Position numbers and translations under genes: made by a program. Shown here in pieces: positions 40,950 through 59,370 of a stretch of DNA of 64,000 nt. Below the pieces are notes generated by a model. The model was not told the origin of the DNA. It searched no databases and saw only the letters and a program-made list of their open reading frames with translations. Source of the DNA: Candidatus Omnitrophota bacterium (GTDB lineage Bacteria; Omnitrophota; Gorgyraeia; JABMRG01); contig JAQUQI010000001.1 of the NCBI GenBank assembly GCA_028716165.1, forward strand, positions 50,458-114,457, written 5' to 3'. Numbering within the stretch: the stretch's first letter is position 1; every line of letters starts with the position of its first letter.

Positions 40950-41705
40950 CTAACTTATTATCGTGCCGGAAAATCCGTCTTTTTTAAGGCGCGCCAATTC
41001 GGACTCGGCAGATGCCAATGTGCTAAAATTTCCTCTCTTAATCTTATACAGCACATTATTGCCTTCCATCTCCTTATCCACCGAGACGGCATAGCCTTTT
41101 GCCTCAAGGGCCTCGGCGTATCTTAAGGCGTTTTCCCTTTTTGAAAATGCCCCCAGCTGTATGGTAAAAAATGACTGCCTTCTGTAATAATCTCCGGCCT
41201 CCTTTGCTTCAAGGCTTGAAGGGTATTGCTGTATAATCTTATTAAAACATCCCCGCGCAAGCTCCCATTTACCCTGTTTGCGCAAGGCCTTGCCTGACCC
41301 AAGATATGCCAAAGCGGCATAGTCTGATGAAGGGTATTTATCCAGCATAGCCTTATAGGCTTTTCCTGCCCTGTCAAAATCTTTTTCCAGAAAATATGAA
41401 TCCGCGATACCAAGTAAAAGCAATTCATCCAACCCTGACCGCGGATAATACTTTACGACAAATTCAAAATTTTCTCTTGCCGCCTCTGCCTGGCCAAGCG
41501 CTAAAAAAGCAAGCCCCATGATATACCTGCCCTGGTCGCCTAAGGAGGCATTGCCCGCGATAGAGCGGCATATGCTAATCGTCTGTTTATAATCTCCGCG
41601 CAGATAATACGCCCATGCCCCATCAATACCCTGCCCGGCGCAATACCCGGGACTGGAGGCAAAAAATAAAGCGCACGCCAAAATAATTGTTAAGGGCTTT
41701 TTCAT
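40950..41705 (-). CDS. TPR-repeat protein with C-terminal SPOR domain (signal peptide)
   Basis: N-terminal signal sequence, TPR-like repeats, and a C-terminal FTIQLGAFSKRENA...YKIKRGNFST segment typical of SPOR domains. Confidence 0.5.
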   Translation of the reverse strand: MKKPLTIILACALFFASSPGYCAGQGIDGAWAYYLRGDYKQTISICRSIAGNASLGDQGRYIMGLAFLALGQAEAARENFEFVVKYYPRSGLDELLLLGIADSYFLEKDFDRAGKAYKAMLDKYPSSDYAALAYLGSGKALRKQGKWELARGCFNKIIQQYPSSLEAKEAGDYYRRQSFFTIQLGAFSKRENALRYAEALEAKGYAVSVDKEMEGNNVLYKIKRGNFSTLASAESELARLKKDGFSGTIIS

Positions 41706-43135
41706 ACAATATTTCCCACAAGAGTATTATCCTGGACGCCTGTTATTTTAACATCAAATATCTTTCCTATCAAAGATTTATCCGCCTTGCAGACTATTTG
41801 ATAATTTTTCATTGTCCGGGCCTTTATATAATAATCCTGCGCGCAAGCCAAACTATCGGGCGGCCTTTTAGCCGGCGAAAGCCCCAAAACGCTTTCAACG
41901 TTTCCGATAAACCCGACGATGTTTTCCCTCATTTTCCGCGCCTGAAGGTTAAGCAAATCCTGGTTGCGCCGCCTCTTGGCATCTTCGCTGACATCATCTT
42001 GCATCTTAAAAGATTCCGCGAAAGGCCTGGGTGAATATTTGAATATAAAAGCGCCGTCAAAACCTATTCTGTCCATAATATCGCGCGTATGCCCAAAGTC
42101 TTCTTCGGTTTCAGAGGGAAAGCCGACAATGATATCTGTCGTGATCGCGCATTCAGGCGCTATCTTTCTCATATCATCTACGAGCTTTTGATAATGCTTT
42201 GAACTATAGCCTCTGTTCATAAGCTTTAATATCCTGTCAGAACCCGACTGCAGGGGCAGATGCAGATGCTGGCAAACCTTATCAAGGCCTGCTATGGCCT
42301 TAAAAAGCTCAAGGTTGGCATCTTTAGGATGAGATGTCATAAACCTTATTCTCTCAAGCCCCGAAATCCTGTTTACCGATTGGAGCAATTTCACAAAATC
42401 ATTCTTGCCGCCTAATAAGGCCCTGCCCGAAGATTTGTAGGAATTCACGTTTTGGCCTAAAAGTGTTACTTCTTTAATACCCCTGTCAACAAGGTATTTT
42501 ATCTCTTCAATTACGCATCCGCGCGGGCGGCTTACTTCTCTGCCCCTTACATAAGGCACAATGCAATACGAACAAAAATTATTACAGCCATAGCTGATAT
42601 TGACGAATGAGCTGACATTATTTTCTCTATATAAATATAATGACTCGGCAGAGCCTTTTAAACCCTTCTCCCTGTCCAAAGGCCTACTTTCTTTTGAAAC
42701 AGAACAAATATGGCGCTTGCCGGAAGAAACCTTTTCAACCAAAGCGGGTATATCATAGATATTGGAAGGCCCGCAGACAAAGTCAACATGCTCAAGCCTT
42801 TTAAATACGTCCTTGCCATAGGCCTTGCCCATACAGCCTGCAAGCCCTATAATAATATCTCTATCAGGCATATCCTGCGCCAGGCCTGCTTTATTTGCCG
42901 GGCATTTACTACTTTCCTTGACCTTGAGGCGCTTCAGCTCGCTTAGCTTGCCCCAAACCCTGTCCTCGGCGTGCTTTCTAACAGCGCAGGTATTAAATAT
43001 TATGATATCCGCATCCTCGTATGACTGGGCAGGGACATAGCCTTTTCGTATCATCAGGCTATAAATGATCTCCGAATCCCGCTCATTCATCTGGCATCCG
43101 AACGTCTTTATATACACTCGTTTTAATTTATCCAT
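41702..43135 (-). CDS. miaB: tRNA-2-methylthio-N6-dimethylallyladenosine synthase
   Basis: N-terminal MTTase cluster (KTFGCQMNERDSE), radical-SAM CNNFCSYC cluster, and TRAM-like C-terminus. Confidence 0.9.
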   Translation of the reverse strand: MDKLKRVYIKTFGCQMNERDSEIIYSLMIRKGYVPAQSYEDADIIIFNTCAVRKHAEDRVWGKLSELKRLKVKESSKCPANKAGLAQDMPDRDIIIGLAGCMGKAYGKDVFKRLEHVDFVCGPSNIYDIPALVEKVSSGKRHICSVSKESRPLDREKGLKGSAESLYLYRENNVSSFVNISYGCNNFCSYCIVPYVRGREVSRPRGCVIEEIKYLVDRGIKEVTLLGQNVNSYKSSGRALLGGKNDFVKLLQSVNRISGLERIRFMTSHPKDANLELFKAIAGLDKVCQHLHLPLQSGSDRILKLMNRGYSSKHYQKLVDDMRKIAPECAITTDIIVGFPSETEEDFGHTRDIMDRIGFDGAFIFKYSPRPFAESFKMQDDVSEDAKRRRNQDLLNLQARKMRENIVGFIGNVESVLGLSPAKRPPDSLACAQDYYIKARTMKNYQIVCKADKSLIGKIFDVKITGVQDNTLVGNIV

Positions 43136-44334: not shown

Positions 44335-44452
44335 TTGAATACCTCAAGACCTTCGCGCTTAGTAAATGATTCAAGATATTCTCTCTGCACCTCAAGAGAA
44401 TATCCCTCTTTGGCTTGATCTTTTGTTGGTACCCGAATATAGAAGGCAATTT

Positions 44453-45052
44453 TCATTTGTTAGATTCTCTTTCCTTTGCTTTAAGCAACCGTTCTCTTGC
44501 TTTTGCAAAAATCTCTAATAATTTTGGTTGCATACCACTATTGAAAGTTCCACGCATATTAAAATGTCCATTAATTTCATTTACCATGGACTCGTATATT
44601 AATTTCTCAGCATCTTTCCATTCTTCAAAGCTAAAATAACTTGGGATTTTACCAGTTTCTGTATGATAGGCAGTTATCCACTCCCGTGTATTTTTTCCTC
44701 CAGAAAATTTTAAAGTTCTATCTATACTTTCTAAATAACGAGTAATATATAAATAATACTCATTTGGTGTTAATAAGCCTTTCTTTTCTTTTTCTTTTAA
44801 TTCCTTAAGGTCTTTGGACATCTCTGTTTGTCCTTGCAGTGTTTGATCTTGATATAATTCATTTCTGAAATCTTTATAATCTGTCGCCTTTTTCTCTCTC
44901 CAACCATACCATCCTTGGAATATTAAGCATAAGAAGATTATGGCAAATAACCCGATCTTAAATTCTTTAGTAATGCGATGTTCAGGAACAAAGCTGATAG
45001 CAGCACTGATTAGAGCAACAACAGCTATTGAAATAAAAAATGTCTTATCCAT
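44453..45052 (-). CDS. hypothetical membrane-anchored protein
   Basis: 199-aa ORF with two N-terminal hydrophobic segments and a charged coiled-coil-like C-terminus. No motif recognised. Confidence 0.4.
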   Translation of the reverse strand: MDKTFFISIAVVALISAAISFVPEHRITKEFKIGLFAIIFLCLIFQGWYGWREKKATDYKDFRNELYQDQTLQGQTEMSKDLKELKEKEKKGLLTPNEYYLYITRYLESIDRTLKFSGGKNTREWITAYHTETGKIPSYFSFEEWKDAEKLIYESMVNEINGHFNMRGTFNSGMQPKLLEIFAKARERLLKAKERESNK

Positions 45053-45058: not shown

Positions 45059-45247
45059 TTACTCCTTTAATTCACCACGCCACTTTTCAATATTTTTAAT
45101 ATCTTCTTTAGTAAAGACTGGATAATTGCGGTAATCACGTTTAGGTTTAACCCACCCCTTCTCTATCCAATTATAAAGAGTCTGACGGGTAATACCTAAT
45201 TCCCTTGCGGCATGAGTGATGTTATATATCTTATTCATAATGAGCAT
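45059..45247 (-). CDS. small helix-turn-helix DNA-binding protein (excisionase/AlpA- or MerR-like)
   Basis: 62 aa with ITHAARELGITRQTLYNWIEKGW, a typical excisionase-type HTH. Adjacent to repeat A. Confidence 0.5.
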   Translation of the reverse strand: MLIMNKIYNITHAARELGITRQTLYNWIEKGWVKPKRDYRNYPVFTKEDIKNIEKWRGELKE

Positions 45248-45299
45248 ATTTTACAGTATTAGACATTAATAGTCAATCTAAACTTTAGGTGGGAATAAA

Positions 45300-46010
45300 T
45301 TGGCTCGTAGCGCAAGGAGCGGAAACCGAAGGTTAACGCCTGAGCAACGAGACAATTTTTCGGGTGGGTGGGGGTTTCTCTTTCCACTGCTTTTTACTGG
45401 CAATTAGGGAATTGACAGACGGATTGCGAGCCGTGCGGGCGAGCAAGACGGAAAACATCAAAATCGCCCCCGCCATCGGCGGGGCATTACCCCCAAAAAG
45501 AATTTCTTTTTCTTTCTTTGCCCTCTTTAATTTTTTATTTTCGGAAACAGAAAAGAAACTGCAAGGCCAAAAAAATCAAAAAGGTTATAAAAATATGTCA
45601 AAAAAAATCTACATCCACACCTTCGGCTGACCCTTGGTTTGTTCTTTACAAGTTGGCTAAACCGTTCTTTTTCACGGCTTTTCAGGTTGAGTTGGCTGAA
45701 TAATGCACCGCCCGCTTCCGCCTCCTGAACGTCGGCTCCAGCGGGCTGCGTGGGTGGTGTTGGCACCGTTCGCCCCGCCTTGGGACGTGGCTCACTTGGC
45801 GGCCGCCTAGGCCGGCGGTCTTCGTGGTTGTGCAAGAGTACGATTCGGCTTTCCGTGTTTGGCGGATTTTGGACGGCGGCGAAAAATTTATAAAATGTGT
45901 TTTTGCTCTTCTTTAAGGGTGGGTGAGGCAAACGCACAAAGGGCGATGCGTAAATCCGAAGGATTAAAGCCGCCCGATTGCAATTGCCGAGGGAGGGAAA
46001 TTAGTACTAT
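45300..46010. repeat. mosaic repeat A (~0.7 kb, non-coding)
   Basis: 45620-45712 and 45801-45868 match the reverse complement of 57174-57279 and 57001-57152. 45895-45936 and 45307-45330 match 56595-56639 and 56981-57010 in direct orientation. Confidence 0.8.
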
Positions 46011-46031
46011 GTCCCCTGATTTAATGTTTTC

Positions 46032-46895
46032 TTATGTTTGTTTCTCTGGCTTATGGACTAAAATTCTATCTCCAGCAAACATTACTTCTTCTGGCTGGCC
46101 ACGAATAACTGCAATTGCATACCATTTCCATTCGCTTTCAACTCCGGCCAGTTTTCTTCTACCTTTCATTTTACTTCCGTATATAGTCCAACCTGAAGTT
46201 TCTAATTCACCCACCATATCAGAGACACGACTTGTAGCTTTCATTTGGCCAGGAATATCTATGTCATCCCAGATATCGCACCAATCTCGCAATTCTTGAA
46301 GGAAACCACCGACAAGATCGATTTCTGCATCATTATTAGGCTCGTCATTAAATGAATAAGAAAAATGACAGCTGGTTACAACATCAATAACTTCTCGGCC
46401 GGTGGTCAACCGTGGCATTACGGTTATTCGCTTTTGCCACGCTTCAATTATCCCGGGTTTTATTACTTCAATCAACTTTGCTAAAACAACATAGATACCC
46501 TCTTCCCATCTCCCTGCTATTCGATCTGCCAAAGTAGGCGAAAAAGATCTAATTTGCTTTGCGTCCATCTTAACCCAAATAGGGAGAATTACCTTCTCTC
46601 CATCTACTTCCCTTTGTGCCAACCCATCAAGTTCAAGCTTCGTATAGTGCTTATCAAAAAAAGCCGGGGACAAAACTGCAATACCGTAGCGGCTTTTCTT
46701 CAACCCTTCATCTATTTTATGTCGAAGGCTATCTCCAATTTTTAAATCAAACTGATCAAACCATACGCTTATTCCTAAAGAAGACAATAGCTGAGCAAGT
46801 GGTTTTGCAACTACCTCCCGATCTTCCGAGGCATATGAAATAAATACATCTTTCTCTACTGTAGAAGAATTATTCATTAAGCAATCCCATCTCAA
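46032..46895 (-). CDS. TIR-domain protein with uncharacterised C-terminal domain
   Basis: N-terminal TIR signature DVFISYASEDRE...SVWFD...GDSL...IAVLSP.F. It overlaps the 3' end of gajB by 26 nt, suggesting one operon. Confidence 0.65.
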   Translation of the reverse strand: MRWDCLMNNSSTVEKDVFISYASEDREVVAKPLAQLLSSLGISVWFDQFDLKIGDSLRHKIDEGLKKSRYGIAVLSPAFFDKHYTKLELDGLAQREVDGEKVILPIWVKMDAKQIRSFSPTLADRIAGRWEEGIYVVLAKLIEVIKPGIIEAWQKRITVMPRLTTGREVIDVVTSCHFSYSFNDEPNNDAEIDLVGGFLQELRDWCDIWDDIDIPGQMKATSRVSDMVGELETSGWTIYGSKMKGRRKLAGVESEWKWYAIAVIRGQPEEVMFAGDRILVHKPEKQT

Positions 46896-48816
46896 TCAAA
46901 AATCTTGAAGGCGTTTTACTCCATCCTCGATATTTTTCAGAATAGCTAAGTGTTAAACTTTTTATTGCCCGCGTAATCGCGACAAAGCAATTCCTCCGCT
47001 CTTCTTCCATTTCAGGACTCTTCTCGCCTTTTTGTTTACTCTGAAAAGATGGCAACTCATCTTCAACTAGACCAATCAAATATACATGATCAAATTCTTT
47101 GCCCTTTGCTCCATGTATTGACATAAGAACTACAGTATCGGGTTTTATCTTTGATTCTTTCGAGTGCAATTGTAATTCTTGCAAAAAGACCTCCAAAGAT
47201 AATTCTGTTCCAAGAGAAGCCGCTATTTCCTTAACAAGATCGTCCCAGACGGCGCGCTCTTCGTCATATCCCGCAAATACTTCTATACCTTGAGCGTTTG
47301 AAGCCACGTCTGGATTTTTTATCAGCTTGTCAAACCAGCTGATTGCATTCTTACAAAATAAACGGAAGTTCTTTTCGCCACCAATGAAGGCGAATACCTC
47401 AGCAATAATCTCTTTGGTTAAAACATCGCTACTCTTCTGCTCAGCAAATCTCATCCAATTTTGCAAGAAACCCAACGTCGAAGATTGCGCTTGCGTTACA
47501 ACTTCATCGGGGTCAATCTCAATGCCAACAAGTTGCTTAAATGCACCACACAAGGAATCTAAACTTGCCTTATCCTGCCGATTACTAGCAAGCCTTAAGA
47601 CCGAATGTAACCATACAAAAGGCGAACTAATAAACTCATCTTTCCTCTGCGCCACAACCGCAGGAATACCTTGATCTTGCAGTCCCTTAAAGGCCCCGTC
47701 TAATAACTTTCTGTTTCTGGCTAAAATAACAACAGATCCAAGCTGATTCGAGTAGCATTTTTTAATATCTTCACCAACGCCTTTTGCTTCTGTTTCAAAT
47801 TCAGGGAAGCGAGACAACAAACGCACCACATCCGCGCACTTACTAATTGGCTTATCTGCTAAAAGTGGTTTCTTCCCCGGAGATCTTAAAAAGTTATTAC
47901 TGATCAAATTATTCGCAATTGAAACAACCTCCGGAGGGCATCGATAATTCGTGGGCAACTGTAAAATTTCAGGGGAATAATCTTGAACAAATTGCTCGAT
48001 TCGCTTATGGCTCGCGCCGTTCCACTGATAAATAATCTGGTCATCATCAGCCACAATAAAAAAGTTTTTGTACTGATCCTCGGATAACGCTCTAATTAAT
48101 TTGTATTGTGCCTCATTTGTATCTTGAAATTCGTCTATGCATATGTAAGGATAAACTGTTCTATAACGTTTGGCAAAAGCCGGGAATTTCGTAAAAAGCC
48201 GGTAGGCCTGGAAAATCAACGAACTAAAATCTAAAGAATTTCGTCTTGATAATGCTTCTTCATAGGCTGGATAAACAACGGCCATGCGTTTTCCGAATTC
48301 CTTATCTCGAAAAACATCAACACACTGAGATGGCTCAATAAGAAACGATTTTAATCTTTGTATAACCGGCAATGTTTTCTTGTCGAGGTCAGATATTATA
48401 TCGCTTGTCTTCTTTGCTTCAGTTACCGCATCATCTAAAACGGCTTGAAGATCATAATCTTGAGAATAAATCTGAAAGTTTGGATTAATCCCTAAATGCA
48501 CTCCATGTTGACGTAATACATCCGCACAAAACGAATGGAATGTTCCTAAAAATAATCTGCTTTCTTGCCCCGGAACAAGATTAGCCACTCTTAAGCGCAT
48601 TTCGTCTGCGGCTTTATTAGTAAAAGTCAGGCCAAGAATTCTAAAATTCTTATCCTGACTTTTATCAAGAATCTTCGCTATACGACAGGTTAAAACTCTC
48701 GTCTTCCCAGACCCGGGGCCTGCAAGCACCAATAATGCCTCATCACCCCACTCAGCGGCTTTCTTCTGAACAAGACTTAATTTCTGCCATGCATTATCCA
48801 AGTCATTATTCGCCAT
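46870..48816 (-). CDS. gajB: UvrD/PcrA-like SF1 helicase (Gabija GajB-like)
   Basis: Walker A AGPGSGKT and helicase motifs (DEFQDTN, YRCPPEV). Immediately downstream of the OLD-family gene. Confidence 0.6.
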   Translation of the reverse strand: MANNDLDNAWQKLSLVQKKAAEWGDEALLVLAGPGSGKTRVLTCRIAKILDKSQDKNFRILGLTFTNKAADEMRLRVANLVPGQESRLFLGTFHSFCADVLRQHGVHLGINPNFQIYSQDYDLQAVLDDAVTEAKKTSDIISDLDKKTLPVIQRLKSFLIEPSQCVDVFRDKEFGKRMAVVYPAYEEALSRRNSLDFSSLIFQAYRLFTKFPAFAKRYRTVYPYICIDEFQDTNEAQYKLIRALSEDQYKNFFIVADDDQIIYQWNGASHKRIEQFVQDYSPEILQLPTNYRCPPEVVSIANNLISNNFLRSPGKKPLLADKPISKCADVVRLLSRFPEFETEAKGVGEDIKKCYSNQLGSVVILARNRKLLDGAFKGLQDQGIPAVVAQRKDEFISSPFVWLHSVLRLASNRQDKASLDSLCGAFKQLVGIEIDPDEVVTQAQSSTLGFLQNWMRFAEQKSSDVLTKEIIAEVFAFIGGEKNFRLFCKNAISWFDKLIKNPDVASNAQGIEVFAGYDEERAVWDDLVKEIAASLGTELSLEVFLQELQLHSKESKIKPDTVVLMSIHGAKGKEFDHVYLIGLVEDELPSFQSKQKGEKSPEMEEERRNCFVAITRAIKSLTLSYSEKYRGWSKTPSRFLIEMGLLNE

Positions 48817-48817
48817 T

Positions 48818-50734
48818 TTATCTCCCCAATGCCATGGAATCTTTTACTAAAGCAGAAAGAAAGTCGGGTACCCGATCTCCCTGCATATTTTTTCCCCGAA
48901 GTTTAGAAATCAACGCGTATGCATAGCCCACTTTATCTTTTCGGATAAGCGCTAATATTTCATTCCCATATTCAGCATCACCGGGCTTATTTTTTAACTT
49001 ATTGCCATTCCCCGTGATGAGCTCCGCATACTCAGCAACAAAACCATTTTTAATTAAGAATTCTTCTAAATCTTTACACGAATTAGGCCACAGCCTAATC
49101 GCGGTCTTAATTTGATCATCGCTGACACCACGATTCTTTACTTCTTTGATCGAATTCTTCCCCTGTTCATCGGTATCACACAGCATTAACCACGGAAAGG
49201 CAAATATTCGTGCTAACCCTACAAACAAACCAGCCGATCCATTATTTCTGTAATCAATTAAAGCAATGCCGTTGCAATCGAAAGACTGACCTAAAACTTC
49301 CGAGAAATAACGTACTATTGGATATTCTGATTGCCCTTCGCATAGAAGCCATGCCCGAGCAAAAAGAATTTCGCCTCTGATCCGCTTGACACATGTTTCT
49401 AACTTAATGAGATCTTGATCTGTTAAATGCAGACATGACTCCTCATATAAACTTTTGAGGTTTCCATGCAAATCAGTTTCGCCAGAATACATTGTTAAAA
49501 GCGACCGATATTCACTCTCTTCCATTTTCCCATTCAACGTTAATATCGATGTGGTCGAATCATAATGATACTTGGCAGATGATTGAGAACAAAAATTTTC
49601 TAATCCATCTTTGACCGGAAGCTTCACTGAAAATGAACGTTTAATACAATAAACATTAGATGCATTGTCGCCTCTCCTGAACAATCTAATGTCTTGGAAA
49701 GGAATTTCTTGAATAAAGTGGGGCGAATGAGAGGATATTATTTTTTGTGTCTTCAATTCGCATAAATTAGCGGCAAGCGCACGAATAGCTTGCGGATGCA
49801 AATGCGCCTCTGGCTCTTCCAATGTCAAAATAGCCTCTGTTTCTGATTCAAATGATGGCTTCAAAAGAATTTCAATATAAGCATAAAAAAGAAATAATAC
49901 AGTTAGACTTTGAATTCCTTGGCCATGACGGAGTAAAGGAATATCAATATCACTGCCCTTGGGCTTAATAACTACCTCTGATTTCGACATCAAATCCCAA
50001 GGCTTTAAAGGCACCGCCTGAATTGATGTATTACTGCCATCTCCAAAAGCCATAATTTTTTGGGCATTAGCAAAAGACGATCTAAATTTCTCAAGTCGAG
50101 GATCTGCCTTTAATAGATCCTTATTAATTTTCAGCAGATCTTCTCCGAGCGTTCTTCGCTGTTCATCACTAATCTTTAAATCTTTAAGAAATTTTCCCCA
50201 GTACTGCGACCTGACGGAAAACTCCTCGTCAGCATCCCGCAAAGCAGATAATGCGAATATTCGGATATAAGTTAAGAAGGCGGTAACATTACTGGCTTTT
50301 ACCTTTAAGACTTGTCCATCGATAGACAAAAATTCCACTCGGGGAGTGATAGTTTTGGTGACGGTGTCAGCTTTACTAGATAATCGTATACCGATAGAAT
50401 CGATATCTTTTATTGGATCCGTCTGGATAATGTCCTGAAGCGATTGAGATAACGATTCCGGCCATTCATCAGACTTGTCCTCGCGAAACCATAGCTCTAT
50501 TTCAATGCCTTCACTTGATAAAGGAGAATCCCCTGCTTTTGACATATAATAATCGTATTCATCGAATACAACGTTTTTCCCGTAAGAAGCCCGAGTCAAT
50601 ACGATTCGAATAGCCTCCAATAAAGCAGTTTTGCCGCTATTATTTTCTCCAATCAGAACGCAAGTGTCCGTAACGGACATCCGCATATCCTTAAGGCATC
50701 TAAAATTTTTTATAAAAATCTCTCTGAGTTTCAC
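48818..50734 (-). CDS. gajA: OLD-family ABC ATPase with C-terminal TOPRIM nuclease domain (Gabija GajA-like)
   Basis: N-terminus MKLREIFIKNFRCL...GENNSGKT is an OLD/RecF-like ATPase. The C-terminal Toprim has a glutamate in LLCEGQSE and a DTDEQG motif. 638 aa. Confidence 0.6.
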   Translation of the reverse strand: MKLREIFIKNFRCLKDMRMSVTDTCVLIGENNSGKTALLEAIRIVLTRASYGKNVVFDEYDYYMSKAGDSPLSSEGIEIELWFREDKSDEWPESLSQSLQDIIQTDPIKDIDSIGIRLSSKADTVTKTITPRVEFLSIDGQVLKVKASNVTAFLTYIRIFALSALRDADEEFSVRSQYWGKFLKDLKISDEQRRTLGEDLLKINKDLLKADPRLEKFRSSFANAQKIMAFGDGSNTSIQAVPLKPWDLMSKSEVVIKPKGSDIDIPLLRHGQGIQSLTVLFLFYAYIEILLKPSFESETEAILTLEEPEAHLHPQAIRALAANLCELKTQKIISSHSPHFIQEIPFQDIRLFRRGDNASNVYCIKRSFSVKLPVKDGLENFCSQSSAKYHYDSTTSILTLNGKMEESEYRSLLTMYSGETDLHGNLKSLYEESCLHLTDQDLIKLETCVKRIRGEILFARAWLLCEGQSEYPIVRYFSEVLGQSFDCNGIALIDYRNNGSAGLFVGLARIFAFPWLMLCDTDEQGKNSIKEVKNRGVSDDQIKTAIRLWPNSCKDLEEFLIKNGFVAEYAELITGNGNKLKNKPGDAEYGNEILALIRKDKVGYAYALISKLRGKNMQGDRVPDFLSALVKDSMALGR

Positions 50735-50776
50735 TGCTAATCCTCTTTAATACGGAGGTGATTCCTTTTCCCTAAT

Positions 50777-51304
50777 CTACACCGCCTCAAATACTCTTAT
50801 CTTATTCCGTACTTCTTCGAACATAACGTATTCGGGCCCCTTTGCCGTATCCCAATCGATTCCCTTATTCTTAAACCTTGGATCTGCACCTATCTCTATG
50901 TACATTTGATGATTACTTAGTTTGAACAAGACTTTACTTGCTTTTTCCAACAAAAAGAGATTCCGCGCAATTTCTTGAGTTTGCAATTTGTGCGCAATAT
51001 TGTGCGCTAAATCATTGCGATGTTCCCTCAATTCCTGAATAATCGAAACGTCATCAGAATCTATAATCTTCATAAAATCACGTAAATATAAAAGACAAGC
51101 TTCAAACTCATTCTTATGCCGAATTAAAACATCGTCTTCGTAAGACTTAAACGGCCCCCCTTCAGAAAACGTCATGTGCCAATAGAACGTTTTAATTGGC
51201 TTTACGATGAGACTTTTAACTAGTTCGAACGCAACTAAGATCAACCCAGCATAAGCGAGTGTTTGTGTAATCTCTCCATTTGTCAAATCACTAATTTTAT
51301 TCAT
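50777..51304 (-). CDS. hypothetical protein with N-terminal TM helix and HEPN-like Rx4H motif
   Basis: 175 aa with EHRNDLAHN. Sits between res and gajA. Confidence 0.35.
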   Translation of the reverse strand: MNKISDLTNGEITQTLAYAGLILVAFELVKSLIVKPIKTFYWHMTFSEGGPFKSYEDDVLIRHKNEFEACLLYLRDFMKIIDSDDVSIIQELREHRNDLAHNIAHKLQTQEIARNLFLLEKASKVLFKLSNHQMYIEIGADPRFKNKGIDWDTAKGPEYVMFEEVRNKIRVFEAV

Positions 51305-51482
51305 CGTTACTTTTATCTATCATCCTTCCGGAATTTCTTCTCGCATTTTGGACATTCGACTTCGTTATCGAAAAACAGGCTGCACGGCACATCGGCGCCG
51401 CAGTGCGGGCATTTCACGACGTCTGCGCCCATGGTGAAATCGTAGCCTAGAAACTCATTGAACGAATCATCGCCGGGCATTG

Positions 51483-54398
51483 TTAAAACAGGGTGCCCTG
51501 AATCATATTCTTGGTTATCTTTAGATAATTAAAAATCTCAAGAATGTTGGCTCCCTGATCCCGCATGCTATAGAACGTATTTTCGCCCACCAGCACATAT
51601 TCCCACTCCGCACCCATCCGGTCCTCCGGCTTCAGCTGATTGATCCTCTCGACCCAGTCGATGGTTGCCAGCTGCTTGAGCTTTACGTTTTCAACCGAAA
51701 TCTTATCCTGCCCCTTGGTTTCGACGATATAACTCCTGCCCTTGGTCTTTACTATGAAATCGGGAGAATAAGACGCCAGCATCCCATCGGATCGCACGTA
51801 ATTGATGCGGGCGAAATAGTGATAATTTTCATTAACCTTAACGAACGCCTCTACGTTGGTATCGCTATCGCAAAACTCCATAAAGGCTTTTTCCAGCCCG
51901 CCTTTATTCGAAGGATATGACTGCTTCTCATAAATCGTTTTGACAATATCAAGGCAATACTTCTCTCTCATTCTCAACGTCGCGATTTCCGAGAAGTGCC
52001 GCTTGATAATCGTTGCCTCGGAAATATCAATATTATTCTGCAGTTCAAAAATTGCCTTGCTTATCTGTTTGATAATATGTTCCACAATGCCGGTTTGCGA
52101 AAGCAATAATACGCGCCAATTATTCTCAAAAAAAGGGTCGAACTCCTGCTTGAATAACTTTTCCCGGACAAATTTATCAATCGCCCTGGCAACCTCGACC
52201 TGATTAACCTGCATAGAGGGATATTCTTTTGTCTTGCGCGCGCTTACCTTAACAATCATTGTAGAAACAGCATTAACGATCTTCCCGATAAACTCGTTAT
52301 AGCTCTTTGAATTAAAAACGTCTGCCTTGACCTCATAATCACCGAAGCGGGTCTTGACCGTCATCTCTTCGGAGTAAAAGATATCGCCGCCCTTAGGCAC
52401 CATCTTTTTGAGCTGTTCCAACCCATAAAAATCGAACGATGCCAGTTTGTCAGCGTCGATCTCCGTAGGCATAAGGTTCTCTTCCCGGTCAATAAGAATA
52501 ATCGGGAAATACAAATCGTAGTCCTTGTAATTGCTCTTGAGCCCTACGTTTATGATGTCGCCCAGGACATCCGTTCTGTCTTTGGGTTCGGTCTCGATCA
52601 CTGGCGCCTCTTTGATTAACTCATCATAAAATTCTATGAATGCCGGATGCTCAATAATACTTAAAATATCCATGCAATTCTTAGGCTCTTGTTTCTTCTG
52701 AAGAAGAGCAGTTCTATTTTCGTCCTTGCTTTCCTGATATTCCGGCTCGCGCCACATAAGCCGTAGGCCCCGCCCAATAACCTGCTCAAGAAGAATAGGC
52801 GCCTGGCTTGAGCGCAAAGGCACGGTAACGCAAATATTGTTGATATCAAACCCCTCACGTAACATCAAAACCGAAATAATCACTTTCGGCTGAGGATGCT
52901 TGTCCACATTAAAAAGCCGCTGCTTCAGCTGAAACCACTCATCCTGCGGCACGGACCCTTTTTTATCAGAGTCGATCTGCGCTACGTCCTTTTCATCCAG
53001 GCCCTCGTACTTTGTCAGATACTCCACGACATGCGGCGTAACTTTAGTATCCTCGCAAACAACGAACATCTTGGGATATTTTGAACATTCGGCCCCATCT
53101 GTTAACGAGGTAAAATGTTCCTCCAGTTTTTTAAGCTTGGCTAAACCCGCCCTCAGCATTGTCTTTTGTCCATTAGATAATCCTACGACCTCCCGACCGT
53201 CACGCTCCGCCTTGAAATCCAAAGGCAACGAGGCAATCTCCTTGCGACGGTCAAGCGCTATGGTCTTGACAAGGCCCATGTGGATTGCCGTACGAAGGTC
53301 GAAATCAATCACTATGTGTGGGAAATAGTGCTTCGTTCTTTTCTGACCGCTCCCGGTCACATCATATGGTGTAGCTGAAAAGTCTATCTGGATAAATTTC
53401 GATCCTTTGTCTGAACTGATATAAGAAAGGCTTCGCTGCCACTCAACCTCCTGAATATCGCCATACGTCTTGTTCTCATGGATATGGTGGGCTTCATCAT
53501 TGATAACAACTAAATCTTTTAACCTCTTCAAAAACTCAAGCTCATTGCCTTTAAGATACTGATTGTCCAGCGTCTCCAAGGAATGACCTGCGGATATTCC
53601 CGGCCGTATCGGCAGAATATCATCAACGATTTTGCTCGGATCTTCTAATGGTGAAATCTCGACAGATTCTTCATCATCAAGGCCTGACAGCAAATGCCAG
53701 TTTGTTATGGCGATAAGGCCGTCGCCCGTAACTTTTCTGCCGATTTCTTCCTTCCTGCAAACACTGCTCTGGATAAAGCCAAAAATCTCCTCGCTAAACC
53801 AGGGAGGAATAAATAAGGCCTCGTACTGCTTGAAGTCCGAAGATAAGAAACTACGCTGCCCTTCCTCATCCTCCTTGCCCAGATACGCATCCAATAGCCG
53901 CTCGTAAACAATCAGCCCCGGAGCCACAAGAAGAAAATTCTTGGAATACCAGCCGCTTAGCGCTTCTTCATGTTTCGCGTTTAGATACTGCCAAATGAGA
54001 AGCGCGTGCATTACCCAGGTTTTTCCGGTTCCGGTAGCCATTTTCATCGCGTACTTGGGATGCTGATATTTTGCCTTTTTAAGCTCGACCTTGTCCATCT
54101 CGGCAAGTATCTCGTCATCCACAAGGGAATACATATCAAAGACCGTTGCGGGCTTCAAAACCTCATGCACATAAATGGTATTCATGATGGCCTGCTTCTG
54201 GCCGATATGAAAGTTGATATTGCGGTTCTCGCAGAAATTATCCTCAAACCAGAACCGTAAGAGATCCCTGGTTACGGGGGTGAATTTTTCGATAAAAGCA
54301 GGGTCCTTAAGATTGAACTGGCTGTTAATGCTATCGGTAAGCCTTCTGGCAAAACGAAGCGGGATGTCCCGGGTGCCGATGTTAAGAGGCGTGGGCAT
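51483..54398 (-). CDS. res: Type III restriction enzyme, Res subunit (SF2 helicase-nuclease)
   Basis: Walker A TGTGKT and DEAH box VINDEAHH. 971 aa. Its start overlaps the mod stop. Confidence 0.8.
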   Translation of the reverse strand: MPTPLNIGTRDIPLRFARRLTDSINSQFNLKDPAFIEKFTPVTRDLLRFWFEDNFCENRNINFHIGQKQAIMNTIYVHEVLKPATVFDMYSLVDDEILAEMDKVELKKAKYQHPKYAMKMATGTGKTWVMHALLIWQYLNAKHEEALSGWYSKNFLLVAPGLIVYERLLDAYLGKEDEEGQRSFLSSDFKQYEALFIPPWFSEEIFGFIQSSVCRKEEIGRKVTGDGLIAITNWHLLSGLDDEESVEISPLEDPSKIVDDILPIRPGISAGHSLETLDNQYLKGNELEFLKRLKDLVVINDEAHHIHENKTYGDIQEVEWQRSLSYISSDKGSKFIQIDFSATPYDVTGSGQKRTKHYFPHIVIDFDLRTAIHMGLVKTIALDRRKEIASLPLDFKAERDGREVVGLSNGQKTMLRAGLAKLKKLEEHFTSLTDGAECSKYPKMFVVCEDTKVTPHVVEYLTKYEGLDEKDVAQIDSDKKGSVPQDEWFQLKQRLFNVDKHPQPKVIISVLMLREGFDINNICVTVPLRSSQAPILLEQVIGRGLRLMWREPEYQESKDENRTALLQKKQEPKNCMDILSIIEHPAFIEFYDELIKEAPVIETEPKDRTDVLGDIINVGLKSNYKDYDLYFPIILIDREENLMPTEIDADKLASFDFYGLEQLKKMVPKGGDIFYSEEMTVKTRFGDYEVKADVFNSKSYNEFIGKIVNAVSTMIVKVSARKTKEYPSMQVNQVEVARAIDKFVREKLFKQEFDPFFENNWRVLLLSQTGIVEHIIKQISKAIFELQNNIDISEATIIKRHFSEIATLRMREKYCLDIVKTIYEKQSYPSNKGGLEKAFMEFCDSDTNVEAFVKVNENYHYFARINYVRSDGMLASYSPDFIVKTKGRSYIVETKGQDKISVENVKLKQLATIDWVERINQLKPEDRMGAEWEYVLVGENTFYSMRDQGANILEIFNYLKITKNMIQGTLF

Positions 54399-56305
54399 TA
54401 CTTCACCTCCTCGATAACCGCGCTTTCAAAGCCAAAGACATCAACGGCTTTTATGCAAACCCTGCGCTTATGTTTCAGTTTCGGGACGCGCAGTTTGGTG
54501 TTTCTTACCACGCGCATCGGGTCATCATCCACCTCGGTATTGCCGCGATAATCCTGCCACTTGCTCCTAAAAACCTCTCCGTCATAATCCGGGTCTATAC
54601 TCCAATACTCGATCAGGGCCAGGGGATCCCTGGCGATTATTTCCTGCAATTTCTCCTTGTCTTTCTCCTCAAGCGGCAGCGCATCCGGAGAAAGAAGCAC
54701 ATAATTATCAAGCTTGACGGAAATTTCCTCTTCTTCCTTATTGAGCTCTTCCATATGAACCGGCTTAACGGAAAGATACTGCAGTGATGAAAAGCGTATT
54801 TTCCCACCCTTGATTAATTTCTGGTATGATGACTTGGTTTTAAGCCTATCAAGTAAATCTGGAGGAATAACAAGCACTTCAATATGCGGGTCATTAAGAT
54901 TTGCTATAACCTGCCCGATATCGGTTACGAAATTCCATCCCAGCACCACGACCTTCTTCCATCCGCCCATAAAGCTTGCGCGCAATTCCTGTGCCCTCTT
55001 AAGCGTTCCATAGCCGGTTAGCTTTGATGGCGAATCTACCATTACAAGCGTCCGGGACTCCTTAATGTATCCCAGGTTTCTCTGGGTAGGCTCTACATCC
55101 GAGAAGGGAATGGCACCATATAGATTGAGTACCACATGAGCAAGGTCGCTTACACGTCGGAACTCGCTTTTTTCGAATTGCTCTTTCTGGTAATCGCCAA
55201 TGCATTGGTATAAGAATGGTTTTGCGTCTTGATCAATAAGGCGTTTCCGCATAACCATACAGGATGGCTTGCCAATATCAACCGTAATCCAACGTCGCCC
55301 AAGTTTTTCTGCAACAGATCCAGTCGTTCCTGACCCGGCAAAGAAATCCGCGATAATCGAACCTTCTTTTGATGATGCTTTAATTATTCTTTCCAATAGC
55401 CTCTCGGGTTTTTGTGTTTGAAATCCTAAGTGCTCTGGTAATGCATGAAAAACTTGAACTATATTATTTTCTTTTCTATCAATCCATGTCCATACATCAT
55501 CGGCTTTTCTTCCTTCATCTGCATAATAACGCGTTGCGTTATTATTGCCTGACATCCGATATTTTCTACCCTTCTCATCTGTAAAAGGATAGATAGATTC
55601 ATCCTTAACCATTAGACGAATTTCGTTAAAAACATTCTCCGTTCCTTTACAATAAAATAATAGATTATCATGTTTTTTCGCAAATCCATTTTGAGGAGCT
55701 GTTCCTGCCTGATAGTGCCAAATAATTTCATTTCTAAAATTATTTTTCCCAAAAATATCATCCATCAATACTTTTACATAGTGCCCAACATGCCAATCTA
55801 AATGAACATATATTGAACCTTGCTCCGATAAAAGTTCTCGCATCAAGCAAATCCTCGGATAAAGCATCTTAAGATAACTCGCCGTTCCATCCTTCCAAGT
55901 ATCAGAATACGCAAATTGTTCAATGACTGTTGGCTTTTGTTCAATATCGCCGTTAGGCAAGGTAATTTTTGTGCGATAATCAGCTTTGGAATCAAACGGC
56001 GGGTCAATATAAATAAGATCTATTTTGCCGCGCATAGAGGGAAAGGCGGTTGACGGATCACCCGAGAGAAGTGCCTGCATCACTAAAAGATTATCGCCGT
56101 AAATCAAACGATTAAACCACTCCTTTTTATCAATCTCCCTGACGGCACCGCGGAAGAGTCCAGAACGCTCTTTGGACGGCAAAACATATTCATTTGTCTG
56201 CAAAACAATTCTTTCCTTTTCGGAAAGCTCGTTTAAAATCCTCTCCGCCTCCTTTTTTCCTTCGGCTACAATTTTTGGCAGTTGTTCAATTAATGATTCA
56301 GGCAT
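54398..56305 (-). CDS. mod: Type III R-M DNA methyltransferase, Mod subunit
   Basis: DPPF motif (IYIDPPFDSKADY) and a SAM-binding region (FFAGSGTTG). Confidence 0.8.
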   Translation of the reverse strand: MPESLIEQLPKIVAEGKKEAERILNELSEKERIVLQTNEYVLPSKERSGLFRGAVREIDKKEWFNRLIYGDNLLVMQALLSGDPSTAFPSMRGKIDLIYIDPPFDSKADYRTKITLPNGDIEQKPTVIEQFAYSDTWKDGTASYLKMLYPRICLMRELLSEQGSIYVHLDWHVGHYVKVLMDDIFGKNNFRNEIIWHYQAGTAPQNGFAKKHDNLLFYCKGTENVFNEIRLMVKDESIYPFTDEKGRKYRMSGNNNATRYYADEGRKADDVWTWIDRKENNIVQVFHALPEHLGFQTQKPERLLERIIKASSKEGSIIADFFAGSGTTGSVAEKLGRRWITVDIGKPSCMVMRKRLIDQDAKPFLYQCIGDYQKEQFEKSEFRRVSDLAHVVLNLYGAIPFSDVEPTQRNLGYIKESRTLVMVDSPSKLTGYGTLKRAQELRASFMGGWKKVVVLGWNFVTDIGQVIANLNDPHIEVLVIPPDLLDRLKTKSSYQKLIKGGKIRFSSLQYLSVKPVHMEELNKEEEEISVKLDNYVLLSPDALPLEEKDKEKLQEIIARDPLALIEYWSIDPDYDGEVFRSKWQDYRGNTEVDDDPMRVVRNTKLRVPKLKHKRRVCIKAVDVFGFESAVIEEVK

Positions 56306-56484
56306 TATCTCTCCCTTTTATTTTTATCTTTCTGCATCGCCTGGTTAATAAATCCCCTGATGATAGACACAACGGATGCGTTCTTATTTTGCTTCTGCAA
56401 CTCGAGGGCTTTTTCTTTCAGAAAAAAATACTGGTCTTGCGTGATTTCAATTGTCGTTTTCTTTATGCGTTTATTGGCAGGCAT
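56305..56484 (-). CDS. small ribbon-helix-helix-like protein, candidate controller of the Type III R-M operon
   Basis: 59-codon ORF (MPANKRIKKTTIEITQDQYFFLKEKALELQ...). Its stop overlaps the mod ATG (TAATG). Shorter than the ORF-track cutoff. Confidence 0.35.
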   Translation of the reverse strand: MPANKRIKKTTIEITQDQYFFLKEKALELQKQNKNASVVSIIRGFINQAMQKDKNKRER

Positions 56485-56559
56485 GTTTCGCTCCTTGATT
56501 GTTGCTTGACTATTTTACCCGTATACCCATATTTATGGATTATAGCACAATACATTGCT

Positions 56560-57290
56560 TTTGGAAACAAAAAAACCTCTAAGGGACAAGTAATCACACA
56601 AAGGGCGTTGCGGAAGCCCAAAGGGCTGAAGCCGCCCGGCTGTGACTGTTGGGCGGAGTTTTTTAAAATCCAAATATTCATCAAAGCAACGCGAACCCGA
56701 AGGGCAAAAGTCTTTCCGCCGAAGGCGGAATGTCTTTTGGCGGTGCGATCTGTTCTGGTTTTTTGAAAAAAAGACAGAAGTGTTGATGAATATTTGATAC
56801 AAGGTTTCTTTTCCTTTTTGGGGAAAAGTAGGCTTTGAGCGCAGGCAACGGAAGCCCGAAGGGCTGAAGTCCGAGCACAAAGACTGCTTTAGGTGGGTGG
56901 GGTATATAGAACCACCTCTGTTACCAAGATAGATTCGGCTTTGCCCCGACAAGCGATGTCCCGAAATGAATACGGGACAATCGCGCAGGCGGGGCGCGGA
57001 CGAAACCGAACAAAAACACCTTTTATAAATTTTTCGCGGCCGCCGATATAAAAAAGGAATAATTTAAGAGAATTTTTGCGAGGTTGAGGACGCTAAAGTG
57101 TTTGGCGAATTTTGGGTGGGGGCAAAATTCGCCAAACACGAAAAGCCGAATCGAACCCTTGCATAGGAAATGCTGGCGGTGCATCATTACCCCTTACATT
57201 GCCGTTAACTCAACTTGAAAAGCCGTAAAAAAGAACGGTTTAGCGAACTTGTAAAGAACAAACCAAGGGTCAGCCGAAAGTCCTCAGAAA
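56560..57290. repeat. mosaic repeat B (~0.7 kb, non-coding), partner of repeat A
   Basis: See repeat A. It contains two copies (56603-56639, 56843-56880) of a hairpin motif also present at 45901-45936. Confidence 0.8.
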
Positions 57291-57393
57291 AACTCGCTTT
57301 TTTGTATCAGTTTTATTCGTCATAAATTATGAAATATCTTTAGTCGTATATAAATCCCAATTTAGTCATGGTCGTTCATCGGTTCTATTAGCG

Positions 57394-58041: not shown

Positions 58042-58152
58042 ACGTGGACGTCCTATTTGGTAACACCCTACATATGGCGGGGCGCTAAAAGTAAGAAGTT
58101 TTTTATATCTATTTGGCAGGGCGTAACTAAATAGGACGCCTGCTGATACCTC
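58036..58152. repeat. copy 2 of the ~118-bp repeat
   Basis: Alignment to the 44217-44334 copy. Confidence 0.85.
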
Positions 58153-58183
58153 TATTCTCATATTCACTGTTAAACGATTAATC

Positions 58184-59152: not shown

Positions 59153-59219
59153 ACTAAATCATTCATCCATTTTTTTATCTTTCCGATATCAACATCCGTG
59201 AACACAGGATAATTTCTAT

Positions 59220-59335: not shown

Positions 59336-59370
59336 GCAAATCCTTTTTTAAAACCGTTCATTGGCACCCC

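Follow-up and report, generated by a model that had tools for sequence, protein, structure and literature searches.

Known systems and the present locus

Large serine recombinase (LSR) elements insert into protein-coding genes, as phiC31 and Bxb1 do, SPbeta in spsM, skin in sigK and SCCmec at rlmH. An island may also enter the 5' end of a gene and restore that gene, as SXT does in prfC with a tyrosine integrase. A118 in comK is a further LSR element inserted into a protein-coding gene (PMC3556126). Islands with dusA-specific integrases, which are tyrosine integrases as well, enter the 5' end of dusA and restore it (PMC4482086). In the mycobacteriophages BPs and Brujita, whose immunity is integration-dependent, attP lies inside a coding sequence and integration removes a C-terminal degradation tag (PMC3694055).

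A comparison of these systems with the locus analysed here, in a 64-kb stretch of Omnitrophota DNA (the window), points to an element of a known kind, an LSR integrative element, with new architectural features. The family to which it belongs shares with phiC31, Bxb1, A118, SPbeta, skin and SCCmec a recombinase with Resolvase, Recombinase and zinc-ribbon domains, a short common core inside a conserved gene, an attB/attP/attL/attR quartet and a small HTH gene nearby. Unlike in those elements, attP here lies inside the 3' end of the recombinase gene itself, which also re-supplies the start of the target gene; there is an extra inverted attP-like copy and a structured non-coding arm of 0.6-1 kb, and the cargo is defensive, with no phage or conjugation genes seen. 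As with the dusA islands and SXT, the 5' end of a tRNA-modification or translation gene is targeted and the element would bring a new 5' end and promoter, but here the enzyme is a serine recombinase and the surrogate 5' end overlaps its ORF in another frame. As in BPs and Brujita, an att site within a coding sequence leads to different C-termini, there in the viral and integrated states; in those phages a repressor is affected and the integrase is a tyrosine integrase, whereas here the recombinase itself loses a 27-aa tail. The non-coding arm of this island family, conserved and structured, is unusually long.

Two inverted repeat blocks enclose the defence genes

The defence segment is bracketed by two repeat blocks, A and B, which a preliminary description had proposed as the ends of a mobile or invertible cassette, recombination sites, or a structured RNA family. 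The repeats are real: when both blocks were compared with the entire window by blastn, three collinear, inverted matches appeared, the best of 72 nt at 96% (45622-45693 vs 57278-57207, E 6e-29) and the others at 90% (45831-45871 vs 57163-57123, E 4e-8) and 94% (45874-45905 vs 57042-57011, E 2e-7), with no further copy of either block in the 64 kb. A direct match between 45307-45330 and 56981-57010, the weakest of those claimed, was not significant on blastn. The repeats are not fragments of an annotated IS or rRNA, nor do they belong to an Rfam family. The blocks had been called non-coding but are not purely so, containing mini-ORFs that are a truncated miaB start (45595-45630, plus strand; 57323-57270, minus strand), a 3' fragment of a serine-recombinase gene in block A (45452-45697) and a conserved tail ORF of 27-28 codons. 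The features between the blocks, with genes assigned by Pfam and PADLOC, are as follows.

46032..56305, minus strand, whole cargo
54398-56305, minus strand, Type III mod
51483-54398, minus strand, Type III res
50777-51304, minus strand, HEPN-like
48818-50734, minus strand, GajA
46870-48816, minus strand, GajB
46032-46895, minus strand, TIR protein
56539..56567, minus strand, promoter-like site for the cargo operon, TTTCCA-17-TATAAT plus TG, conserved with locus L040

The cargo varies between loci while the flanks are conserved; in L040 the promoter-like site is followed by a CCATAA-TATGG palindrome. Comparative data bear out the proposal of recombination sites: very probably, a genomic island was integrated by an LSR into the miaB 5' end and has since decayed, and the two blocks represent its recombination sites, as attL and an inverted attP-like copy.

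A common core in the start of miaB

Omnitrophota MAGs and metagenomes yielded about 40 homologous copies, the D-bearing ones all gathered by one exact 21-mer, which biases the sample to conserved cores. Every copy opens with M..KK(I/V)(Y/F)I(R/K)TFG followed by TGA. This is where the UPF0004 domain of MiaB starts; MiaB in the window reads MDKLKRVYIKTFGCQMN, and its Pfam UPF0004 match begins at residue 6. TGA replaces the first Cys codon of the miaB start at a common core, TTCGGCTG.

41702..43135, minus strand, miaB, the target gene, intact; its codons TFGC at 43102-43095 hold an attB-type core, TTCGGATG; by Pfam and comparison
45595..45630, plus strand, N_A, miaB start brought by the element (MSKKIYIHTFG before a TGA), core TTCGGCTG at 45622-45629
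57270..57323, minus strand, N_B, truncated miaB 5' end (MTNKTDTKKRVFLRTFG, then TGA), the B arm of attL, core TTCGGCTG at 57278-57271
57324..57390, minus strand, leader preceding the B mini-ORF, interpreted as native miaB upstream sequence that has been displaced, containing the motif GAACCGATGAACG

Four junction types align on one core, TTCGG(C/A)TG, although they are drawn from different genomes rather than from a single lineage observed prior to and following integration. The attB type, N-core-CQMN, is found in the window miaB, L037 and L022; the attR type, U-N-core-CQMN, in L042-L044; the attP-like type, U-N-core-D, in window A and L026; and the attL type, native N-core-D, in window B and others. 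The N of B-type copies is variable, comes with host-specific upstream sequence that differs from copy to copy, and matches native miaB starts: the miaB of L037 (gtctttatccggactttcgg) equals the N of L002, L008 and L030. An older attL adjoins a GIY-YIG remnant, and GIY-YIG is the native upstream context of miaB in L022. N_A matches the N with which miaB actually starts in L042 and L043. On the three long contigs L042-L044 the LSR overlaps the miaB start, the sequence reading ...ATGCCAAAAAAAATCTACATCCGTACCTTCGGCTG up to the junction and TCAAATGAATGAG after it, and TPR/SPOR, miaA and hflX follow; the window has the same miaB-TPR/SPOR-miaA-hflX synteny. The B leader contains a promoter-like TTTATA-17-CATAAT at 57354-57326, in a promoter scan that overall was not above chance.

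In the explanation that we favour, and hold with good confidence as a whole, an LSR integrated an island carrying Gabija, TIR and restriction genes into the miaB 5' end, with crossover in or next to TTCGGCTG, the codons for Thr-Phe-Gly-Cys. Sequence comparison shows that the LSR gene of the element provides, with its 3' end, the P arm, which in a second reading frame holds the start codon and first ~11 codons of MiaB; because it supplies this start, attR (LSR-U-N-core-miaB) keeps miaB intact. The displaced native start (N0) is fused to the other arm and forms attL (N0-core-D), where a TGA ends its reading frame immediately. In that arm the opening ~85 nt (P') encode a 27-aa tail, which the LSR possesses only if joined to D, as at an attP-type junction. 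In the window, B (57390-56590, minus strand) is attL, heading the cargo (Type III R-M, HEPN, Gabija, TIR), and A (45281-45989) is the attP-like copy, internal and inverted (U-N-core-D1 and the hairpin), which members of this family have immediately upstream of their HTH-X-LSR operon. Transcription from the displaced miaB promoter after integration may turn D into a structured RNA leader, the tail switch may tune how active or stable the recombinase is, and the homology between A and B, being inverted, may have let the cargo segment flip during evolution.

Several observations count against this island model. The window miaB start is native-type with no U upstream and so is not a clean attR, which obliges the model to assume that something was deleted or replaced later; simple integration does not predict the inverted copy A; a motif resembling the miaB codons 3' of the core sits upstream of some B-type copies; and the window holds no intact recombinase, only fragments (45452-45697, 57206-57277 and 44334-44459 by tblastn). 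Among the assembled MAG and metagenome contigs, no empty site, circular form, excision product or circular contig was observed.

The recombinase and its alternative tail

45281..45594, plus strand, U, LSR 3'-end pseudogene fragment (aa ~499-550, ..NIKIAPAIGGALPPKRISF..), tblastn 57-82% identity
44331..44456, minus strand, LSR N-terminal pseudogene (MKIAFYIRVPTKDQ...EVFK*), tblastn aa 9-50 at 76% and translation
44453..45052, minus strand, p199, at the variable 'X' position between HTH and LSR, by position only
45059..45247, minus strand, HTH gene (MerR_1/HTH_17 type by Pfam), first of the conserved HTH-X-LSR operon
57194..57277, minus strand, P' arm and alternative LSR C-terminal tail (SADPWFVLYKFAKPFFFTAFQVELTAM*), containing the 72-nt inverted repeat
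45630..45905, plus strand, D1_A: P' arm, tail ORF (45623-45703, SADPWFVLYKLAKPFFFTAFQVELAE*) and shortened D1, 91% identical to L006 over 433 nt

Intact LSR ORFs of 569-581 aa with Resolvase, Recombinase and Zn_ribbon_recom domains traverse U-N-core in L026 and L025; the L025 ORF (4813-6522) matches PF00239 (6.8e-41), PF07508 (6e-22) and PF13408 (2.2e-9) in Pfam, the domain set of an LSR, and has 915 homologues at E<=1e-30. Database LSRs diverge exactly after ..STS.PSA into miaB-joined (553-559 aa), D-joined (576-583 aa) and other forms. The D-joined proteins end in the alternative tail, to which the window tail ORF is 92% identical (LSR aa 556-579, tblastn), and those joined to miaB have two residues (VK, AK or AR) in place of the 27 aa. 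The tail ORF is intact in 32 of 32 distinct copies and its minor-allele counts by codon position, 54/61/131, are of the coding type. The 72-nt inverted repeat is conserved because it is an att arm and encodes the alternative tail, and not as the product of recent duplication. Relative to L006, D1_A has lost ~107 nt, including half of the Pc hairpin of D.

The HTH gene, noted earlier as an excisionase-type gene adjoining repeat A, proved to head a conserved operon, with a promoter-like TTGACT-17-TAAAAT ahead of it at 45276-45248. Its homologues adjoin U in L017, L025, L032, L038 and L040 and lie upstream of the LSR in L043, L045 and L046; it is a candidate regulator or directionality factor. 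The neighbouring p199 resembles none of the X genes in L025, L043 and L044. The window LSR pseudogene has Pro at the position of the catalytic Ser and runs into a stop after 41 codons, so the window island is probably fixed.

The structured arm and its hairpins

56652..57193, minus strand, D (D1b-D2), conserved structured non-coding arm, by alignment A2, RNAalifold and pair counts
57139-57098, minus strand, Pc hairpin inside D, by alignment A2 and RNAalifold
57152-57143 with 56941-56932, minus strand, long-range helix inside D, by RNAalifold and pair counts
inside D, minus strand, helix GCAAAAAT/GTTTTTGT and Pd2 hairpin, by RNAalifold
56889-56828, minus strand, R1-type hairpin inside D, CM 36.3 bits
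56590..56651, minus strand, R1 hairpin D3_B, outermost in D and immediately ahead of the promoter of the cargo, CM 81.1 bits, covariation
45928..45989, minus strand, R1 hairpin D3_A, downstream of the TIR gene, CM 84.7 bits, a direct repeat of 56590-56651

The helices of D contain 11 pairs with compensatory change, against 4.1±1.1 in shuffles (alignment A2, RNAalifold). The long-range helix covaries, with arms ~210 nt apart in the window copy, and C(UUCG)G loops occur on one strand only. Rfam 15 gave no gathering-score match in the window and only chance-level matches for the two blocks at E up to 10; L040 and L038 had none at E<=1. D resembles the large ornate bacterial RNAs GOLLD, ROOL, OLE and HEARO in its length, conservation and many helices, in its variable inserted hairpins and in a link to mobile elements. 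It differs from them in that it matches no Rfam model and is always one arm of a recombination junction.

A covariance model finds exactly three copies of the 62-nt hairpin (R1) in the window, all on the minus strand. The preliminary description had this number and the second and third positions right; it placed the first, at 45901-45936, ~40 nt too low, the stem core being 45942-45976. Its apical stem difference, AATCC/GGATT vs AGCCC/GGGCT, is confirmed in the same register. Across 24 distinct homologous hairpins, in an alignment fitted to the covariance model and hence biased towards structure, 17 of 20 pairs show compensatory change with 92% of cells paired; shuffles give 8.3±1.6 (0/500 reach the observed value) and slid registers 2-5. 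The hairpin is a real family whose structure is conserved. An intrinsic terminator would have a free U tract after its GC-rich hairpin; here the TTTGTGTG that comes next is engaged with the 5' flank in an outer stem, which covaries, and the hairpin is absent from the minus-strand terminator-scan list.

Distribution and mobility

The island family is widespread in uncultivated Omnitrophota. Between hosts the LSR is 81-91% identical, vs 41-49% for MiaB, 43-52% for MiaA and 44-50% for HflX, a difference which argues that the element moves horizontally. The two scans by which the collection was made came with no estimate of how many matches chance would give; L034, a metagenome locus, was rejected as a chance match, sharing the 21-mer only in unrelated surroundings.

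Other explanations

The inverted N-core-D1 repeats could instead serve phase variation, flipping the 10.6-kb defence segment or the HTH-X-LSR module by recombinase or homologous recombination. For the 10.6-kb segment, programmed inversion is possible: the repeats form inverted copies of 72-280 bp, serine integrases invert DNA between inverted sites, and two inverted attP-like or attR sites always surround the LSR module in the family. Head-inverted variants exist (L022 copy 2), and L040 and L038 are arranged as if the window's core-to-core segment had been flipped, with HTH divergent from U-N-core-full D-R-M genes. Such alternative arrangements occur between different lineages only, however, and two orientation isomers of one lineage were never seen. 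The cargo promoter would flip with the cargo, leaving no obvious ON/OFF effect, the window LSR is dead, and an attP-type A and attL-type B are not canonical partners, so that a programmed invertible cassette is an unlikely account of the locus. Somewhat less likely still is that D is primarily an independent large structured ncRNA gene in two copies, with the recombinase and miaB features incidental. The covarying helices, including the long-range one, the one-strand loops, the strong hairpin covariation and the lack of an Rfam match would all suit such a gene; it would leave unexplained why the edge of homology coincides exactly with the att core in each of the four junction types, why the first ~85 nt are protein-coding and why D is found only as one arm of LSR junctions, and large deletions of D occur in many copies (window A, L008, L014, L020, L035).

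The hairpins recall integron attC sites in being imperfect, ~60 nt long and more conserved in structure than in sequence, and in flanking cargo in direct orientation; in L044, too, a HigB-M78-Beta_protein module lies between two hairpins. A cassette array at a resident platform beside miaB is nevertheless very improbable: Pfam shows no IntI-type tyrosine recombinase among the main ORFs of 38.7-64 kb, the hairpin consensus CAGCAGTCACAG...TTTGTGTGCTTGC by inspection lacks the R''/R' core sequences RYYYAAC...GTTRRRY (R/L boxes), one hairpin lies inside the non-coding arm, and an LSR so much more conserved than host genes speaks for a mobile element. Least credible of all is an IS, composite transposon or MITE of which remnants with terminal inverted repeats survive. 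Inverted repeats do bracket the cargo and contigs break at them, but Pfam found no transposase in or near the blocks or among the flanking or enclosed ORFs, only two copies occur in the 64 kb, and the ends match a gene-internal, site-specific core. For the LSR island that we favour, contigs that often end inside the element are what repeated flanks around variable cargo would lead one to expect.

A probable serine-integrase island with a defence cargo

The puzzling repeat mosaic is best explained as the trace left by a defined family of mobile elements: a serine-integrase genomic island with a defence cargo, a system of a known kind. The preliminary description had reported repeats shared by two non-coding blocks, here block A (45281-45989) and block B (57390-56590, minus strand), and blastn of each block against the whole window shows that they are real. 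Three inverted matches are collinear, pairing 45622-45693 with 57278-57207 (96%, 72 nt, E 6e-29), 45831-45871 with 57163-57123 (90%) and 45874-45905 with 57042-57011 (94%), and there is no further copy elsewhere in the 64 kb. The hairpin reported with them does occur three times, always on the minus strand; its first copy had been placed about 40 nt too low. Pfam and PADLOC also agree with the enclosed defence genes, namely Type III mod and res, a HEPN-like protein, GajA, GajB and a TIR protein.

Features of the window, in minus-strand order, followed by individual features
57394-64000, beyond repeat B: accessory genes, including PDC-S39 and Fic
57390-56590: attL (block B)
56567-56539: promoter-like site
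Next in order: mod, res, HEPN, GajA, GajB, TIR
45989-45928: R1 hairpin
Next in order: reversed attP-like copy (block A)
Next in order: HTH, p199, pseudogene of a large serine recombinase (LSR), phosphatase-fold fragment
Next in order: miaB, TPR/SPOR, miaA, hflX
45928-45989, 56590-56651 and 56828-56889, all minus strand: hairpin copies
60259-62058: PDC-S39 candidate (PADLOC), DUF7380 and DUF4209
62128-63099: weak HEPN_Apea-like ORF
63444-63932: Fic gene
45452-45697, block A: C-terminal 80 residues of the LSR (tblastn)
57206-57277, block B: last 24 residues of the LSR, 92% (tblastn)
44334-44459: N-terminus of the LSR, 76% (tblastn), with the catalytic Ser changed to Pro and a stop after codon 41

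Rfam returned no match at gathering or permissive thresholds for the window, the two blocks and the homologous loci L040 and L038, and a search of the window found no tRNA or tmRNA genes; a known RNA, an rRNA fragment and an intron model are thereby ruled out as the identity of the blocks. Promoter and terminator scans stayed at chance level overall. Exact-protein look-ups of the window TIR and MiaB proteins gave nothing, and GajB led to one 3.6-kb contig only. The window holds no further att copy. The accessory and defence-like genes past repeat B, among them several further ORFs without a family (57394-64000), may be remains of older cargo. Between the LSR pseudogene and miaB, a 144-aa ORF (43213-43647) matches Exo_endo_phos only in part and below threshold; it is probably a fragment of a gene. 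The segment 11000-14000 is AT-rich (GC 0.33-0.35 vs ~0.45 around it).

Homologous copies and modular layout

Relatives were collected by one exact 21-mer from the best repeat, CGGCTGACCCTTGGTTTGTTC, and the sampling of downstream-arm (D) copies rests on that 21-mer. It matched 9 loci in species-representative genomes, all of them Omnitrophota or MAGs with doubtful labels, and 31 loci in metagenomes, many of the matches lying at contig ends. One metagenome locus (L034) was discarded as a chance match because it shares the 21-mer alone, with no similarity in its surroundings. The scan of viral contigs gave zero matches, and a viral origin was rejected on this result.

When all copies are mapped on each other, the element proves modular. 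A conserved upstream module, U, is present in some copies, while a short ORF (N), the core and D occur in all. D extends up to ~0.8 kb and has three subdivisions, D1, D2 and D3, the last being a terminal hairpin. Window copy A, which shares 91% identity with L006, has the layout U-N-core-D1 with a shortened D1, after which comes a D3-type hairpin in inverted orientation; window copy B reads N-core-D1-D2-D3 after unique upstream sequence.

The gene order of the window is found again in L022, L037, L043 and L044, and the reversed copy also lies beside HTH-X-LSR, X being the variable position that p199 occupies in the window, in L025, L038, L040, L045 and L046. The cargo varies between loci. The inverted attP-like copy A is a constant feature of the family, though simple integration does not require it. 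With such a copy, an element could integrate either way round, or its LSR module or cargo could flip. A programmed inversion of the cargo segment would fit L040 and L038, which have the arrangement expected from a flipped window cargo; no orientation isomers of one lineage were seen, and we consider such inversion unlikely.

Several smaller features accompany these copies. GC-rich palindromic insertions (…CCTGAGCGAAGTCGAAGG…, read 'PERSRR') break up U, N and D at L022 4180-4260, L026 1650-1700 and elsewhere, lie in frame inside the LSR ORF, and resemble a small repeat scattered through these genomes. Small GIY-YIG ORFs recur in seven loci in all (e.g. L022 4393-4665 and 1963-2298), one within the P1 hairpin of D1 and another directly upstream of miaB. 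A related island in L045 (981-2796, 5954-6973) carries a diversity-generating retroelement (RVT_1 and bAvd) in its cargo and an IS110-family transposase inserted in its D arm.

The large serine recombinase

All-against-all ORF clustering of the loci revealed a 581-aa ORF in L026 that spans U, N and the core before ending ~95 nt inside D1. This ORF is an LSR, whose L025 homologue has Resolvase, Recombinase and Zn_ribbon_recom domains. Searching the window with it by tblastn recovered the three fragments listed in the table. These identify U as the 3' end of an LSR gene and show that the window LSR, which follows the HTH and p199 genes, is a pseudogene. The p199 protein shows no similarity to its positional counterparts in relatives. 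An earlier idea, that U is an RNA 5' domain pairing with D (G-box/C-box), was dropped, U being coding in L025 and L026. LSR homologues number 915 at E<=1e-30, mostly labelled Omnitrophota; several hundred close relatives whose att sites can be inferred have practical interest as tools for genome integration. Some LSR genes (L025 4813-4870; proteins P0001 and P0002) join other sequences at the core (GCCGTTGGGTGCAG…, with tails GRWVQYYTTIVPYLSRIR or ELSLRFYDILFSLFSVS), which suggests secondary target sites or variant arms.

The start of miaB as the probable target

In every copy, N reads M..KK(I/V)(Y/F)I(R/K)TFG and ends at a TGA stop inside the core TTCGGCTGA. This motif is the canonical start of MiaB (window MiaB, MDKLKRVYIKTFGCQMN; Pfam UPF0004 from residue 6), and ORF N is truncated precisely at the first Cys codon of MiaB. 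The genuine miaB lies 1.5-5.5 kb from U-bearing copies, in divergent orientation, in the window, L021, L022 and L037. Aligning the junctions on the core yields the full quartet.

Junction types
attB type: native N-core-CQMN; window, L037, L022; miaB site …TATATAAAGACGTTCGGATGCCAGATGAATGAG…; the truncated miaB 5' end of block B with its core, joined to CAGATGAA, would give a restored attB
attR: U-N-core-CQMN; L042-44
attP type: U-N-core-D; window A, L026; site …ATCTACATCCGTACCTTCGGCTGACCCTTGGTTTGTTCTTTACAAG…
attL: native N-core-D; window B and other U-less copies

The family now has a recombinase, a target (the miaB TFGC codons) and a sequence for each of the four junctions. On three long contigs (289, 69 and 146 kb), an LSR of 553-559 aa overlaps the called miaB start by 4 nt, with the junction sequence …ATGCCAAAAAAAATCTACATCCGTACCTTCGGCTG|TCAAATGAATGAG, and is followed by TPR/SPOR, miaA and hflX, the order of window 43135-38753; the gene order in L043 is HTH-170 aa-LSR-miaB. 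The overlap and the junction sequence show that a chimeric miaB has the element-borne N as its working start, embedded out of frame in the LSR 3' end. Window miaB lacks an upstream U, for which one has to suppose later decay or replacement.

The N of attL-type copies is variable and matches native miaB starts; that of L037, gtctttatccggactttcgg, is the N of L002, L008 and L030. Contig Ga0272441 has a second, older attL beside a GIY-YIG remnant, which is the native miaB upstream context in L022. LSR identity between hosts is 81-91%, against 41-52% for MiaB, MiaA and HflX, a disparity that marks the element as spreading horizontally and not as a resident platform. The family shows a route by which defence genes spread among very divergent, uncultivated Omnitrophota.

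Two other accounts of the truncated N were considered. Its position behind TFG and the TG that opens the Cys codon first led to the element being read as an intron in a miaB paralogue. This was rejected, since no locus has a 3' exon, the hallmarks of group I/II introns are missing, and the 'upstream' sequence is the recombinase ORF. Selenocysteine recoding of the TGA fails because the downstream frame is not MiaB. Integration at the miaB start is the reading retained. Some attL-type copies carry a 'C-fragment' motif, GAACCGATGAACG (TGTCAGATGAACG in L011), ~100 nt upstream of the core (window 57355-57390; upstream of N in L003, L007, L011 and L012), which resembles the miaB codons immediately 3' of the core (CAGATGAAC).

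A recombinase tail predicted to follow integration

The 72-nt inverted repeat belongs to the first ~85 nt after the core, which are almost invariant from copy to copy. Translated in the frame of the LSR, this stretch gives SADPWFVLYKL(S/A)KPFFFTAFQVELA.., with a fixed stop position in most of 32 distinct copies and variation mostly at third codon positions (54/61/131). Database LSRs split exactly after ..STS.PSA into miaB-joined proteins of 553-559 aa ending VK, AK or AR, D-joined proteins of 576-583 aa with the tail, and a few others. P0004 (576 aa) bears the tail, and P0005 (553 aa) has the miaB-joined form. These classes place attP, by prediction, inside the recombinase gene, where integration would alter the recombinase C-terminus. 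The closest analogy found is mycobacteriophage integration-dependent immunity (PMC3694055), in which the gene containing attP encodes the repressor, and the protein loses a degradation tag upon integration; here the gene is that of the recombinase.

The miaB-start target, the recombinase/target coding overlap, the tail switch, the internal inverted att copy and the long structured arm appear to be new. Three features appear unusual among serine integrases: the recombinase 3' end is the target-gene start, the C-terminus follows the integration state, and an extra inverted attP-like copy lies inside the element. Literature searches found no description of this island variant or of these three features.

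The structured arm D and the R1 hairpins

Beyond the tail, D shows RNA-like conservation. RNAalifold on nine long D copies predicts 92 pairs, 95.9% paired. Compensatory changes affect 11 pairs vs 4.1±1.1 in shuffles (0/500) and 0-2 in slid registers.

Helices of D
P1 and P2: supported helices
57139-57098: Pc hairpin, 17 bp, four covarying positions
GCAAAAAT/ATTTTTGC: supported helix
Pd2 hairpin: stems very different by eye, CCCAGCCGCC/GGCGGCTGGG, CCCTGCCTGCAGC/…, GCCCCG/CGGGGC
57152-57143 with 56941-56932: long-range helix GATTCGGCTT/AAGCCGAATC, compensated in L040 (GCTTCGGCTTC/GAAGCCGAAGC)

Model R1, which describes the 62-nt hairpin family, matches 25 times across 320 kb of related loci. The compensatory stem changes first noted in the window hairpins recur across the family, with 17/20 pairs compensated and 92% of cells paired in a model-fitted alignment. 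C(UUCG)G loops in inserted and repeat hairpins occur on the mini-ORF strand only. G-U vs A-C counts also favour that strand (36 vs 11) and carry little weight, since the structure was predicted on it.

Supported by covariation, D is a candidate for a new large structured RNA. Many copies have large deletions in D, and for this reason we put its function as RNA at roughly even chances. Such an RNA might be a leader that starts at the displaced miaB promoter, or else form the 3' UTR of the mRNA for the tail-bearing LSR. A conserved D2 segment, AAGCCGAA, is complementary to TTCGGCT of the att core and to its copy in D1. In keeping with this complementarity it is conceivable, though improbable, that the structured arm D, 0.6-1 kb long, and its hairpins are transcribed from the displaced miaB promoter and join in or control serine-recombinase recombination. 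Combined with both inverted attP-like sites and a recombinase tail that can be switched, they would make up a reversible, RNA-assisted system that captures and flips defence cargo at miaB.

In L044 (2749-2815) an R1-type hairpin separates two cargo modules, with a PDDEXK gene preceding it and HigB-M78-Beta_protein following; R1 hairpins may punctuate cargo units. In L022 (8960-9360) the head of a copy (N-core-first 25 nt of D1) is inverted relative to the rest of D, with its junction in the Pc palindrome loop; the N of this copy and the start of the resident miaB agree exactly over ~40 nt.
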